Positions 44,701-50,700 of a DNA stretch of 64,000 nt are shown piece after piece. Made by a program: the position numbers. How positions within the stretch are numbered: position 1 is the stretch's first letter; each line of letters starts with the position of its first letter. The DNA is from Candidatus Omnitrophota bacterium (GTDB lineage Bacteria > Omnitrophota > Gorgyraeia > Gygaellales > Profunditerraquicolaceae), in assembly GCA_028712505.1 (NCBI GenBank), contig JAQTQC010000001.1, positions 77,635 to 141,634 on the forward strand, written 5' to 3'.

Positions 44701-47700
44701 ATAGCCCATTACACCCTGGGGTATTATTATTTCCATATTAAAGATTATGATAACGCTGAGAACAGCCTGAAAAAATCCCTTTTGATAGATCCTCAGTTTA
44801 ATTACGCGCACAAATTGCTCAGTCAGGTGTATTTTGAAAAAGGAAGCTTTGAAAAAGAGCTCTCCAGTGCCAAGGATGCGCTTGCGGTAAGCAATAATGA
44901 CGCCTCTGTTTACAATGACCTTGGCTTGGCATTGATGCATCTGGAGCGTTATACGGAGGCGATTCCCTATTTGCAAAAGGCAGTTAGCCTTGATCCGAAT
45001 AATACCGATTATATTTATAGCCTAGGAAGTGTTTACCGGGATAATAAAATGTTTGAACAGGCGATCTCGGAGTACAGTAAATTGATTGTATTGAGAAAAG
45101 ATTACCCCAATTTGCATAATGATTTGGCTGAGATATATGATAATCTAGGCAAGCATGCACAAGCGGTTTCAGAATACCAGAAAGAAGTAGCGTATTGCAA
45201 TCAAGCCATGGCAAATAATCCTGATAATCCTGTTTTACTCAACAATTACGCCTATGCTTTAACTGGCCTGGGTCAAGTTAGTGAAGCCAAGGTAATTATC
45301 GACGGCGTAATAAAGTCTTTCCCCCGTTACCGCCAGGCGCAGTTGACTTTATCCAGAATCTACGACAAGATGCATAAACCGGATTTGGCTTTGAAGTCAA
45401 TGGAAAAAGCTAAGCAACTTTCAGCAGGAGAGGGTTTTATCGACAATGAAATAACCAGGTTAAACAAGCAACCTGCGTTTAAACCAGAGGTTTCCTCAGA
45501 GCAAAAGGATACGATTTATTTGAAAAACGGACGCAAATTGCAGGGAAAGATAACAAAAGAGTATCCGGATAGGATAGTACTGGAAGTGTTGCTGGGTTCT
45601 TCTCGGGGAGAAGTCATTTTTTATCGGGATTCAATTGAGCGCATAGAAAAGATACGGAATTAAACAAAGTTTTTTCGAGACAGCGTTTTAATAAAACAAT
45701 GATTCTCAGACAAATTGCAGTAAAAATTAATAAGATATATTCCTTCCGGTACAGCTTATGGAACATGGCGGTAAAGCAATTTAGGGCCAAATATGCCGGT
45801 TCTGTCTTGGGTATTTTTTGGGTAGCTATCAACCCTTTTATATTGATGTTGGCAATAACCTTCGTTTTTACAACTGTCTTTAAAGCCGAAGGGGAAGATT
45901 TTCCTTTATTTGTCCTTTCAGGGATTATTCCCTGGATGTTTTTCTCCGGGGCTTTGTCTGAAGCTGTTCCTTCCTTATCAGCGCAAAAGAGTGTTTTGCA
46001 TCAGTTTAGTTTACCAAAAGAAATAATTCCTTTGAGTACCGTGTTGTCCTATGCGTTGAATTTTCTTATTAGCTGGTTAATTATCTCTCCTTTGTTTTTA
46101 TTTCGCAAACCTGGGGCTATCACCATGATTGTTTTTCTTCCGTTCATATTCTTGCTGACCTGTATTTTTATCGGTGGGATAAGCTTGTTATTTAGTGTAG
46201 TCAATGTTATTTACCGTGACCTGGAACATTTAATCGGGACTTTACTTATGTTCTGGTTCTGGGTTACACCAATTTTTTATTCCGTAGGGATGGTCCCTGT
46301 GAATCTCCGCTGGGTTTTTAATTTAAACCCCGTCTCGGCATTTATTTTATTTTACCGGGAGATAATTTTTTACTGTCGGGTACCGGATTTGGTCACTTTT
46401 CTGGCGGTAACTGCCTGGGCATTTATTAGTTTATCCGTGGGAATATTGGTTTCTGTCTGGCTTGAGCCTAGAGTATTGAAGCGTATCTAATATGTCTATA
46501 ATCAGCTTTAATGATGTTTGGGAGATGTACCGTATCAAATTCGTTATCGAAGGCAAATCCTCATGGGAGGATTTTCAGGCCTTGCAGGGAATCAGCTTTT
46601 CCATGGAAAAGGGGGAAATCCTGGGGATTATCGGTGAGAATGGTTCGGGTAAGTCGACCATCTTGAGGTTGATTGCCGGGATGCTTCAGCCTGATCGTGG
46701 CACAATAGAGGTTTTAGGCAGTGTTGCAGGTCTTCTGGAGTTAGGCGCAGGTTTCCAGACCGAGCTTACTGGCAGGGAGAACATTGCCCTGCAGTGTGAA
46801 CTCTTTGGCTTGCCAGCTACTCAGGCAAAGGAAAAATTCCGCCAAATTATCGATTTCGCTGAAATCGGCAAATTTATCGATGCCCCGGTAAAATGCTATT
46901 CCCAGGGCATGTTTGTGCGCCTGGCATTTGCCATAGCAGTGCATATGGATTCAGATATCTTCCTTGTAGATGATACACTGTCTGTAGGGGATGAGTATTT
47001 CCAGAGAAAGTGTATCAAAGAGATATTCAGGATAAAACAACAGGGCAAGACTGTGGTTATTGTTACCCATGATATGACGATGTTGCAGAAACTTTGCGCA
47101 AGGACAATATTCTTAAAACAGGGAATCTTGGTTAAGGATGAAGAGACGGCCAAGGTAGTTTCTTTTTATTCCCAGACAGTCGGCAGCCCAAAGGGAATAG
47201 CTGTTATTGAGAAGAAAAAATTTGGTCTGACATTTAATAATGGGAAGTTGCTCTTGAACTGGGATGGTAAATTGATTACCTCTGCTTCCGGAGCCTACAC
47301 GATTTTTAACGTAGCCAATAAATGGTATAGTTCTACCCAGGCGGAATGGGAGATTATAGAAGATTCTCAGGGGGTTTTTACGGCGATTGGCCAAATCTAT
47401 CAATTAGGGCTGACTCAGGTCTGGAGATTTGAGGTCCTGGGGGATTGCGAAGTCAAATGGGATATAGAGCTTGAAATGGACGGAGATATTGGGTTATCTG
47501 AAATGTATGTTAATATTGCGCTCAAAGATGACTATGCCCGGTGGTTTAGCAATTCAGAAAAAGGGGATTTCCCCCCGATTAAAAACGAAGATAAAAACTG
47601 GAATACTGTGTTTACAAAGAATGGTTTAAGCGCACACATCGGAGTGTACCAGCAGATTTTGGATTCAGTTGAGTTGCCTTCTCTTTTATTTGAGCAGTTG

Positions 47701-50700
47701 TCATTAGGAACTTTAGCTCAAGGCTTGATTCTGAATTCCGATTATTTATCACATTGCCGCATATTGCAATATAAGCTTAATCCATTTTCTGCTAAATCAG
47801 GAAATCAAACTGACCGGTTTATTTGTTTTGCGGGAAAAATCATATTAAATACTCCGGATATTGATGTTTATATTTCTAAGGCACAGAATGAATCCGTCCT
47901 ATCTGCCTCGGAATCAAAGTTGACTTTTGATAATGGTATTTGCAGGCTTGAATATAAGTCGGTAGAATTGACCAAAAATAATCATATTTTCACCTCTCTT
48001 TATGCAAACGGGAAATGGCATTTTTCTCATTTAGCGCATTGGGATTTTAAGAAACAAAATGACCATAAGATTATTGCTCTGGGTAGATGGCCGGATTTGG
48101 CTTTGACTCAGGTCTGGGAAATTGAAGTTGTCGATGGCCGTTCTTTCAAATGGGATGTCAACGTAGAAGTCGAGGAAGAACTGGTTATTGAACAGCAGTA
48201 TTTTTTTATTTGCTGCTCAAGCGATTATTCGCAATGGTCCAGTAATTATGGTTCGGGAGTTTTCCCTGCGGATTTCCGGGAGACCGAAATGGATATGTTG
48301 CAAAGATGTCTTCCCGATGGCGAACTCGGATTTTTAAGCCCGGATGCTAATTTACCCGCATTATGGGTGAAATTTTCCAATGAATTCCATAATTACGCCA
48401 AGATCATAAATTCTAGCTTTTACGAAAAAGCGAGACTAATGCGTATAGATAAAGTAGAGCCTGAAAGGATTAAGAAATTCCTCCCCGGAAAATATCCCTG
48501 TTTTAAACTGGCTATTTCTCCGAACGGGAATAGACAAGTATTTGATCCAGGCTCAAATGAGCTTAATGGAGAGAGGTTAAAGTTTATTTTTAACCAGGGC
48601 AGCGGCCGCGTACTTTGGGAAGGGAAGGAGTTGACCAAGAGGATCGGTTTTTACACTTCTTTATGCTCGGGAGGACGCTGGCATGATTCCTCTTCTTCGG
48701 CAAGGTGGAAGGTTGTTGAGAAAAGTAAGGATGTAATTAAAATTACCGGAGAATGGCTGTATTTGCCGATAAGCCAGTATTGGGAAATAAGTTTAAAAGA
48801 AGACAAGTTTATTAATTTCATTATCAGAATGAGTTTAGATAAGGCTTTGGAGGTCGAGGCCCTGCAAGCAAATCTTATGTTGTCGGAAATATATTCGCAA
48901 TGGGCAAGGCAAGGACAGGCACATAGTTTTCCCGGATTCAATAGCAATATTGATGATAAATGGGATGTTATTTTCTCTTGTCCGTCCGGGCCTGGGGGAG
49001 TGGGGGTAGTTAAGGCGGCAGAAAACGGTTTGTTTTTACCTGCGGTTACTTTGTCTACCCAGGAGGAAAACCCGGGGCAGCTCCTTAATGTTGTAAATTC
49101 CGATATTTACCACAGGGGGAGGGTTTTGCAGTGTTCCAGCACAGGTGCAAGAACCCTGGCCGCGGGCGATTACCAGTATTTTAACGGGAAGATATTCTGT
49201 AGTGGCGATTAAATAAAAGGATGATCTAATGTCCTGGTTGAGTTCAATTAAGGTTTTAGGGAGACATTTTAAATTTTACCTATCCCGGGGGTTAGATTAT
49301 CCTTTGGTTTCTCCGGATATGCTGCAGCTTTGTTTTTTATCCCGTTGTAATTTAAAATGCAAGATGTGCAATGTGCAGGAAAAATATGAAAAACTTAAGA
49401 TCTCGGGTAAGACTTACGAATTAGATTTTAAGACAATGCAGGATTTGATATGTCAGGCAGCGGATATGGGGATCAAGCAGTTATTCCTGATCGGAGGAGA
49501 GCCTTTTTTAAGCAGGGATCTGTTCGATGTCATTAAATTTGCCAGTCACTATAAAATGGATACGGTTGTTTTTACGAATGGAACCCTTTTGGGGAACCTG
49601 GAGATTATTGAGAAAACCTTTGACTCTGGGCTACGCAGTCTGGGAATATCTATTGATGGAGCGAATGAAAATACATATAAAAATATAAGAGGCGAAGGGA
49701 TTTTCGAAAAGATTATAGAGAATGTCCGATTGTTCAATAAAATAAAAAAAGACAGGGGGTTGGTTTCTCCCAGTATAAGCATAGCCTGTACGGTTATGGA
49801 TCAGAATATTGAAGAGTTGCTGGATATCGTAAACTTAGCGAAAAGTTTGGAAGTTGATGGAATAGGCTTCCAGCCGGTGGTTATGAATAATACCGATCAA
49901 AGGTTGAGAGACAATCCAAATCAGAATTGGATACCCCCGTCAAGGTATGCTATACTCGATAAGTCTATAGATCAATTGCTGAAATATAAGTGTTCGAATA
50001 AGGAGAACTTTAAATTTATTTATACCGGGTTAGTTCAGCTAAGATCGATCAAGGATTATTTCAAGGGGGGATCGGTTTTAAACAGGCAAAAATGCTACGC
50101 AGGGTTTAACCGGATAATCATTTCGCAGGATGGAAAGGTATATCTTTGCGCTGCCGAGCCGGATAGTGGAGAAGTAAGCTTTGGGGATATCTATAGAGAT
50201 AGATTAAAAGATTTATGGTATTCCGATAAGGCAAGAATTTTCAGGAAAAGCATAAAGAAATGCAGCAATCACTGTCTGCTAAGTTGTGCTCGCAGGGGTG
50301 AGTTCGATAGATTTATGGATGATTTTTATCGCGGCAATTAATAAATTATGCATCTTTCAATAGTTATCCCTACATATAAAAGATATGATTTACTAAAACA
50401 GTGCCTGGATTCTGTGTTGCAACAGGATTATCCTTTAACCGAATACGAGGTCATCGTAGTTGATGATGCCCGGGATAATCAGGTTAAGGCGCTCTTGGAT
50501 CAATTAAAAGAAAAGCATCCAAATCTACAATATATCGCGCAAGATCATCGGGGTCCTGCAGCAGCCAGGAATTTAGGCATCCGTTTTTCTTCCGGGGAGA
50601 TCGTCGGCTTTATTGACGATGATTGTCTCGTAGATAGGGGTTGGGTAAAGCTGATGACCTTGGCGCATCTAAAGAATCCTACGATAGCCGCTGTAGGCGG

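Follow-up and report, generated by a model that had tools for sequence, protein, structure and literature searches.

The locus and its transporter

The 64,000-nucleotide stretch analysed here (the window; positions 77,635 to 141,634 of contig JAQTQC010000001.1, Candidatus Omnitrophota bacterium) encodes an ATP-binding cassette (ABC) exporter whose Wzt-type ATPase is specified by one uninterrupted reading frame of 906 amino acids (aa) at 46492..49212 on the + strand. Here we show that the C-terminal tail of this ATPase consists of three diverged copies of one domain (the module), that this domain is not the carbohydrate-binding domain (CBD) of characterised Wzt proteins, and that it also occurs on radical S-adenosylmethionine (rSAM) enzymes and on membrane glycosyltransferases of sister gene clusters.

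The N-terminal part of the protein is a nucleotide-binding domain (NBD) with Walker A GENGSGKST (aa 48-56), ABC signature YSQGM (136-140), Walker B IFLVDD (156-161), D-loop LSVGD (163-167) and H-loop VTHD (at aa 191, with H193). The motifs quoted in an earlier, sequence-only reading of this stretch are all where it had placed them; its LSVGD is the D-loop, however, and the ABC signature is YSQGM. In the full-length AlphaFold model (mean pLDDT 83.6) the NBD is closed by a terminal helix (aa 219-229). Its best PDB sequence matches, obtained with phmmer, are the Aquifex aeolicus Wzt entries 6amx/8dku/7k2t (E ~3e-59), and the TarH/TagH teichoic-acid exporters are also among the best (TarH, E 2.6e-53). 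The top NCBIfam matches are TagH (PRK13545 being the best) and galactan Wzt, all under their equivalog cut-offs. In Foldseek comparisons, the NBD of the model superimposes on the NBDs of Wzt, TagH and KpsT with TMt values of 0.77-0.87 and an rmsd of 2-4 Å. For the full-length Aquifex Wzt sequences in the PDB the alignment goes no further than the NBD boundary (chain residue 239), and the match to TagH PRK13545 ends at aa 244.

The gene directly upstream encodes a Wzm-like permease, and its stop codon lies 1 nt ahead of the Wzt start codon. An ABC2_membrane gene is found directly 5' of the module-bearing Wzt gene in the loci examined gene by gene, and a Wzm homologue is present in 15 of the loci that were fetched. 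The NBD matches and the adjoining permease bear out the earlier assignment as a Wzt-type ATPase, and membership of the 906-aa protein in the Wzm/Wzt (Wzt/TagH-type) class of glycan-export ABC systems is supported. The clusters also provide a glycan context in the form of GT2, GT4, GT-C, carbamoyltransferase and SGNH genes, and the predicted cargo of the exporter is a polyprenyl-linked glycan.

The tail is a triplicated module

The tail beyond the NBD has 671 residues and starts, as a module array, immediately after the terminal NBD helix. It splits into three units, R1, R2 and R3, of 231, 221 and 215 aa (Table 1), in good agreement with the about 225 aa per repeat that had been proposed from the sequence. 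Whole-protein self-BLAST showed the identity diagonal only, and the repeats were compared segment against segment. BLASTP then aligned R1 with R2 at E 1.2e-16 (32% identity), R1 with R3 at E 1.2e-21 (26%) and R2 with R3 at E 1.9e-17 (25%). Smith-Waterman scores between the repeats are 165-200, versus 31-33 ± 4-6 for shuffled sequences (n=300), corresponding to z values of 28-31; with z ~30, low complexity or chance as the source of the repeats is ruled out. Thus, the internal similarity on which the proposed triplication had been made to depend is significant by both methods, with pairwise E-values of 1e-16 to 1e-21. Corresponding motifs are found along the repeats: FNNGKLLLNW (aa 248), FDNGICRLEY (aa 479) and FNQGSGRVLW (aa 700), followed by LTQVW (aa 307 and 538) and ISQYWEIS (aa 760), and by KWDIELE (aa 322) and KWDVNVE (aa 553). 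R3 in addition holds the NSDIYHRGRVLQ motif.

A set of conserved residues, mostly aromatic or polar, forms the signature of the module. In the numbering of R1 it comprises T263, W278, S281, W286, Q309, W311, Y348, W351, F360, P396, N415 and R423; in R2 it is intact as T494, W509, S512, W517, Q540, W542, Y579, W582, F591, P622, N640 and R648; and it is complete in all three repeats of the 906-aa protein. Among 388 modules taken from complete proteins, on which the module-class comparisons below are based, the signature is kept in 81-94%.

No hydrophobic segment is present in the tail (maximum KD19 = 1.16), which is thus a soluble part of the protein on the cytoplasmic side. On the same ground, a tail that spans the membrane or lies outside the cell, as in TagH, was dismissed.

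Table 1. Exporter genes, modules and neighbouring cluster genes in the window
Feature	Coordinates	Strand	Details
Carbamoyltransferase	38447-40135	+	Pfam
SGNH/GDSL-TPR protein	40135-41430	+	Pfam
SGNH/GDSL-TPR protein	41423-42742	+	Pfam
Flavin amine-oxidase-like oxidoreductase	42836-44176	+	Pfam
TPR protein	44173-45663	+	Pfam
Wzm-like ABC-2 permease, 263 aa	45699..46490	+	Pfam ABC2_membrane, E 2.1e-9
Wzt nucleotide-binding domain	46492..47196	+	aa 1-235; Pfam ABC_tran, E 5.6e-21
Module R1 ("first" class)	47209..47901	+	aa 240-470; beta-supersandwich and C-terminal linker helix
Module R2 ("middle" class, least conserved)	47902..48564	+	aa 471-691
Module R3 ("terminal" class, most conserved)	48565..49212	+	aa 692-906 and stop codon
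Array of 12 consecutive rSAM genes	49229..64000	+	Pfam Radical_SAM, SPASM, B12-binding
GT2::rSAM fusion, 640 aa	50348-52270	+	Pfam
B12-binding rSAM	52286-53827	+	Pfam

Fold and identity of the module

No Pfam or NCBIfam match was obtained for any repeat, either with the full protein or with 31 repeat units, and the Pfam family Wzt_C (PF14524) gave no match to any of these at E<=1. Furthermore, a profile built from the 31 repeat units found nothing among the PDB sequences. The structure prediction of one repeat, which had been suggested as a check, was carried out: an AlphaFold (AF2) model of a single module, computed from the repeat alignment, is a confident beta-supersandwich (pLDDT 90.9, pTM 0.90) of ~17 beta-strands followed by a linker helix. 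A Foldseek search of the PDB placed this model nearest to beta-supersandwich domains of the galactose-mutarotase-like type, with E-values of 4e-5 to 1e-2 and TMq values of 0.4-0.64. The best match is the N-domain of the GH36 alpha-galactosaminidase 9ayu (E 4.3e-5, TMq 0.64), and others include the GH2 enzyme 3bga (LacZ domain 5; E 2.2e-4), the GH94 enzyme 5h42 (E 9e-4), galactose mutarotase 1nsm (E 8e-3) and YidC P1 3bs6 (TMq 0.59), as well as GH65, GH149 and GH63 N-domains, PL4, PL17/Alg17c, heparinase III and OpgG/OpgD. In most cases the matched part of these solved structures is a supersandwich domain that is non-catalytic or binds substrate, and it belongs to a carbohydrate-active protein. 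Given the moderate scores, the likeness is established at the level of the fold and not as homology.

Characterised Wzt proteins have CBDs that consist of one jelly roll and dimerise by strand swapping (PMC9445017). As references we considered those of E. coli O9a, Raoultella terrigena and Aquifex aeolicus (PDB 2R5O, 5HNO, 6O14, 7K2T and 8DKU). The sequence-only reading had likened the repeats to this known domain and had suggested a fold comparison with it. The repeats are not copies of it. There is no Wzt_C match, the module has ~17 strands and ~220 aa versus a jelly roll of ~150 aa, and the best 50 Foldseek matches of the module include no structure of a Wzt CBD. Superposition of full-length Aquifex Wzt on the full model gives a TMt of ~0.5 and an rmsd of 11-14 Å, no better than MalK or CysA, a result that a differing domain orientation could equally explain. 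Thus, the module is a domain other than the canonical CBD, located in the place of the canonical CBD after the NBD helix.

A large family with position-specific modules and changing copy number

A search with the tail found 45 relatives. Three repeats and a length of ~905 aa are shared by 42 of them, at identities down to 35%, and two are 1126 aa long with four repeats. Repeats at the same position match each other far better than repeats at different positions (R1-R1 ~220 bits vs ~75 bits across positions). Since each repeat position is orthologous across more than 40 homologues, the triplication must be older than the family, that is, ancient. In the 40-sequence family alignment, R3 has 24 invariant residues, R1 has 17 and R2 has nine, and each repeat position is, judging from its sequence conservation, under a long-term constraint of its own.

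When 1.84 billion representatives were searched exhaustively with a profile, the family grew to 672 protein clusters (at 50% identity) with E<=1e-3, including 331 at E<=1e-30. Among the best 150 of the 672, the NBD-bearing proteins contain one (2 proteins), two (20), three (42), four (13), five (12) or eight (1) modules. P0190 is a complete gene for a one-module Wzt; P0172 was discarded as such because its gene ends at a contig end. When modules are compared between proteins with other copy numbers, terminal modules match terminal ones in 120 of 127 cases and first modules match first ones in 96 of 123, and middle modules descend mostly from first or middle modules. Terminal modules conserve nearly every signature residue at 94-98% and share a conserved polar motif, N-S-D-x-x-H-R-x-R; in middle modules the signature residues are 60-86% conserved. 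Very recent internal duplications indicate that the module copy number is still evolving: the neighbouring modules 2 and 3 of the five-module protein P0048 are 98.6% identical, neighbours among modules 2-4 of P0072 are 64-69% identical, and modules 1-2 of the PMT_2 protein in L019 are 79% identical.

All members that bear an organism name belong to Candidatus Omnitrophota, the taxonomy having been taken from the source names of 20 representative clusters. By its sequence, the module flags a large family of gene clusters, which pair glycosyltransferases with up to 12 rSAM enzymes. An alignment search with the terminal module, which reaches close relatives only, returned 11 species-representative loci, all of them in Omnitrophota metagenome-assembled genomes, four of which are labelled Planctomycetales/Planctomycetia. 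These four, L010, L014, L015 and L016 (third-party assemblies CAZPNW01, CAZQGT01, CAYVYZ01 and CAZNGC01), encode 40-44%-identical three-module Wzt proteins and carry the label "uncultured Planctomycetales/Planctomycetia". The label reflects either a taxonomic mislabel or a wider distribution in the Planctomycetes-Verrucomicrobia-Chlamydiae (PVC) group.

The same module on radical-SAM enzymes and glycosyltransferases

In family members with unusual architectures, Pfam scans revealed other hosts of the module. It is the C-terminal part of membrane glycosyltransferases of the GT-C/PMT_2 type (P0064, P0111, P0139, P0151 and P0154) and is placed N-terminal to or within radical-SAM/SPASM and B12-rSAM enzymes (P0086, P0118, P0144, P0173, P0184 and P0187). 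Some proteins combine exporter and enzyme in one polypeptide. P0071 (1856 aa, NCBI RKY36779.1) consists of an NBD, five modules and a C-terminal rSAM/SPASM part; P0182 (~1215 aa) has an NBD, two modules and a C-terminal rSAM/SPASM part, and this arrangement is present in three independent cluster members (P0182/P0199/P0200). In L003/L004, the module is found on a four-module Wzt, on an adjoining B12-rSAM enzyme and on a divergently transcribed PMT_2 protein. The rSAM-borne module of L003 is closest to the terminal Wzt module of its own locus (36% identity, E 1.5e-25), and the last module of the GT-C fusion of L019 matches terminal Wzt modules only. The C-terminal domains of all solved GT-C enzymes are known to be extracytoplasmic, and the GT-C-fused modules are probably periplasmic, a location that would fit substrate binding. 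The GT-C fusions have 6-11 transmembrane helices and show no clear charge bias in a Kyte-Doolittle count. Two further proteins encoded beside the four-module Wzt of L003/L004 contain several rSAM domains in one chain, three in the 1419-aa protein at 15631-19890 and two in the 912-aa protein at 19924-22662.

Gene neighbourhood

Downstream of the Wzt gene the window is occupied by the rSAM array, most of whose 12 proteins are SPASM or twitch-like. The twelfth gene begins at ~62913 and runs off the window, so that only a partial open reading frame (ORF), with a CxxxCxxC motif, is visible. The rSAM paralogues of the window are 21-35% identical to each other and, by this divergence, are old. Ten rSAM proteins were compared with NCBIfam; this gave generic sub-threshold matches only, none of them reaching a curated cut-off.

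The association extends beyond the window. The order Wzm, module-bearing Wzt, then rSAM genes with GT2, GT4 and GT-C genes recurs at homologues with one, three, four and eight modules. Of the fetched loci, 17 encode a Wzt with modules on 5 kb of sequence or more; every one of them contains between one and 12 rSAM ORFs and nearly every one a GT2 domain, the place of which is taken by GT4 and GT-C in L018. In L001, a carbamoyltransferase, a GDSL protein and a GT2::rSAM fusion recur beside a 40%-identical Wzt homologue. The fusion (12742-14625) directly follows the homologue in L001, and in the window it is located one gene downstream of the Wzt gene. Such a covalent union of glycosyltransferase and rSAM enzyme is unusual.

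The two SGNH/GDSL-TPR proteins upstream of the exporter are tandem paralogues in which the SGNH/GDSL hydrolase domain is split by a TPR repeat, and they are candidates for O-acyl transferases or esterases that act on glycans. A small hydrophobic ORF (MKKILYILKEIFYLVRKHKLAYLLPIFIVLTLLAALVYYIGPAVITSFIYAGI) at ~38270-38430, immediately 5' of the carbamoyltransferase gene, resembles, by eye, the DUF5989 gene located beside the carbamoyltransferase gene of L001.

What the modules may do

Several lines of evidence lead us to favour, if only by a little, the view that the modules are putative cytoplasmic recognition domains for an rSAM-tailored lipid-linked glycan, common to the exporter and the tailoring enzymes. 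The array starts where canonical CBDs attach, and the NBD and the Wzm permease are typical of glycan and teichoic-acid exporters. Furthermore, glycan recognition is likely because sister clusters have the module joined to rSAM enzymes and membrane glycosyltransferases: the Wzt, GT-C/PMT_2 and rSAM hosts of the module would share only a substrate. The confident module model with its carbohydrate-associated fold matches, the polypeptides that unite NBD, modules and rSAM/SPASM, the rSAM ORFs in all 17 loci and the separate constraint on each repeat position point the same way. Homology, fold, distribution of the domain, fusions and gene linkage are established here; from them we infer that the ligand is a glycan, that its binding would gate export, and what each repeat position would do. 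The sequence-only reading had also tied a recognition role to an rSAM-modified glycan. This part of it, considering the fusions and the gene linkage, is the best-supported interpretation, although the module is not the known Wzt CBD.

According to this recognition model, the ATPase would power the Wzm/Wzt-type export of a lipid-linked glycan, with three diverged supersandwich modules on the cytoplasmic side replacing the single jelly-roll CBD; three modules per chain would amount to six per Wzt dimer. The modules would bind the polymer that the neighbouring glycosyltransferases and rSAM enzymes make and tailor; in the manner of the canonical CBD, they would thereby gather the substrate at the transporter and permit its export. 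In the sister clusters, rSAM enzymes and GT-C glycosyltransferases would be anchored to the polymer through the module. The conserved C-terminal module may be the primary reader, and the NBD-proximal and middle modules, which undergo duplication and divergence, may raise the avidity for a repetitive chain or recognise further modifications. That the modules read the chain terminus or a methyl cap is pure speculation, because terminus reading and binding along the chain fit the evidence alike.

A number of observations weigh against the recognition model. The supersandwich is associated with carbohydrates, which is no proof of binding; YidC P1 and PBCV-1 capsid proteins also match the fold, and the TM-scores of the module are moderate (0.4-0.64). 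The conserved aromatic and polar residues may belong to the core instead of a surface site. The relative arrangement of the modules in the full-length model is of low reliability (pTM 0.52). In addition, the NCBIfam scan gives no clue to the chemistry of the rSAM enzymes, and SPASM-type rSAM enzymes are often peptide maturases, so that a non-glycan substrate is possible.

A bolder form of the model, which we put forward only tentatively, is that the module is a dedicated "glycan recognition element", which would be for polysaccharides what the RiPP recognition element (RRE; RiPP, ribosomally synthesized and post-translationally modified peptide) is for peptides. It would mark a hitherto unrecognised, Omnitrophota-wide pathway for a lipid-linked surface polymer tailored by up to a dozen rSAM enzymes, and the tandem, position-specific modules would act as successive checkpoints that read modifications before export. 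If this were true, the pathway would yield an rSAM-modified glycan of a new class.

Alternatively, the modules could be protein-protein docking or scaffold domains that join rSAM enzymes and glycosyltransferases to the exporter as a metabolon, possibly by homotypic contacts and with no polymer binding. This would be in line with the presence of modules on all partners of the presumed complex, with the resemblance of the rSAM-borne module of L003 to the terminal Wzt module of its own locus, and with the NBD-modules-rSAM fusions, which show the physical proximity of these proteins. Moreover, the structural match YidC P1 is a protein-interaction domain, and canonical Wzt CBDs are themselves dimerisation units (PMC9445017). 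However, none of the 12 rSAM proteins of the window, nor any of the four or more of L001, carries a module, so that homotypic docking cannot recruit them. Most fold matches, too, are domains of carbohydrate-active proteins, and the extracytoplasmic position of the C-terminal domains in known GT-C structures would place some modules across the membrane from their cytoplasmic partners. We therefore consider docking unlikely as the function of the module. A spacer function is more doubtful still. In that case the modules, and the middle ones above all, would serve chiefly as rigid spacers or a molecular ruler, whose number would set the distance between the NBD and one functional terminal module and hence, possibly, polymer length or cytoplasmic reach. 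The variation in copy number (1, 2, 3, 4, 5 and 8), the recent duplications (98.6% and 68% identical neighbours), the low conservation of middle modules and the separate orthologous class formed by terminal modules could all be explained in this way. On the other hand, in the three-copy family R1 and R2 have each remained an orthologous class of their own at identities as low as 35%, with an intact Trp/Asn/Arg signature, which exceeds the constraint that a spacer would need, and the enzyme fusions likewise bear several modules.

It also seemed conceivable that the modules are catalytic glycan-processing domains (epimerase/mutarotase-like, lyase or glucanase, as in galactose mutarotase or OpgD), given that the galactose-mutarotase-like fold includes the enzymes mutarotase, OpgD/OpgG and PL4 and that the terminal class has the polar N-S-D-x-x-H-R-x-R motif. 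Against this, conservation does not exceed 66% at any His, Glu or Asp position across the 388 modules, the module has ~220 aa compared with ~340 aa in mutarotase, and it matches best to accessory domains that form part of larger enzymes, at target-normalised TM-scores of only 0.12-0.25. We know of no precedent for tandem arrays of three to eight catalytic domains on an ABC ATPase, and we regard a catalytic role as very improbable.

Comparison with known systems

The general principle of a C-terminal cargo-recognition domain on Wzt is already known: in ABC exporters of glycans, one small jelly-roll domain inspects the cargo. In Aquifex Wzt, binding inhibits the ATPase. What is new is that an undescribed domain, in one to eight copies, occupies the same position, that its tandem arrays are position-specific, that it is shared with rSAM and GT-C enzymes, and that it marks a distinct type of gene cluster. 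In the literature searched, we found no description of the domain, of the association between Wzt and rSAM arrays, or of this cluster type. Like the canonical Wzt CBD, the module is cytoplasmic and C-terminal to a Wzt NBD, belongs to a Wzm/Wzt exporter in a glycan cluster, and would have the presumed role of recognising the finished polymer and licensing its export. It differs in size and fold (~220 aa, ~17 strands and a supersandwich, versus a jelly roll of ~150 aa), in its copy number (three here and one to eight elsewhere, versus one), and in its presence on rSAM and GT-C enzymes.

The overall fold is shared with the galactose-mutarotase-like domains of GH36, GH65, GH94, GH149, GH63, LacZ domain 5, OpgG/OpgD, PL4, PL17, heparinase III and YidC P1, all of which, YidC P1 excepted, sit in glycan-binding or glycan-processing proteins. 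Unlike these, the module is smaller, shows no detectable sequence relationship and has no conserved catalytic residues; it forms tandem arrays on an ABC ATPase, whereas the galactose-mutarotase-like domain is one accessory domain of a hydrolase. In the case of the TagH ATPase of B. subtilis, the C-terminal extension crosses the membrane and is extracellular. The present protein resembles it as a Wzt/TagH-family ATPase with a long C-terminal extension, but has no hydrophobic segment in the tail.

RiPP recognition elements (RRE/PqqD-like) are winged-helix domains of ~90 aa that bind leader peptides and are fused to rSAM peptide maturases. The analogy with the module is that of one substrate-recognition domain, free or fused, common to several tailoring enzymes of a pathway, many of them rSAM/SPASM proteins. 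The module is instead a 220-aa beta-sandwich, and its clusters are dominated by glycosyltransferases, the Wzm/Wzt exporter and a carbamoyltransferase. In these clusters no gene for a precursor peptide turned up, although none was searched for. The modules offer a test case for the coupling of multivalent or multi-specific cargo recognition to ABC export and, being soluble and confidently predicted, could serve as affinity reagents to identify the product from uncultured nanobacteria.

Other features of the window

The genes upstream of ~37 kb are housekeeping genes, including a V/A-type ATPase operon (21929-27823). Surrounded by such genes downstream of this operon is a 667-aa ORF (30878-32881) with no Pfam match at E<=1e-6. 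Every non-nested ORF of at least 150 aa in the window (1-64000), which applies to about 50 of the 54 listed, has + orientation, and the GC skew is positive in every 2-kb bin; such co-orientation over 64 kb is unusually strict.

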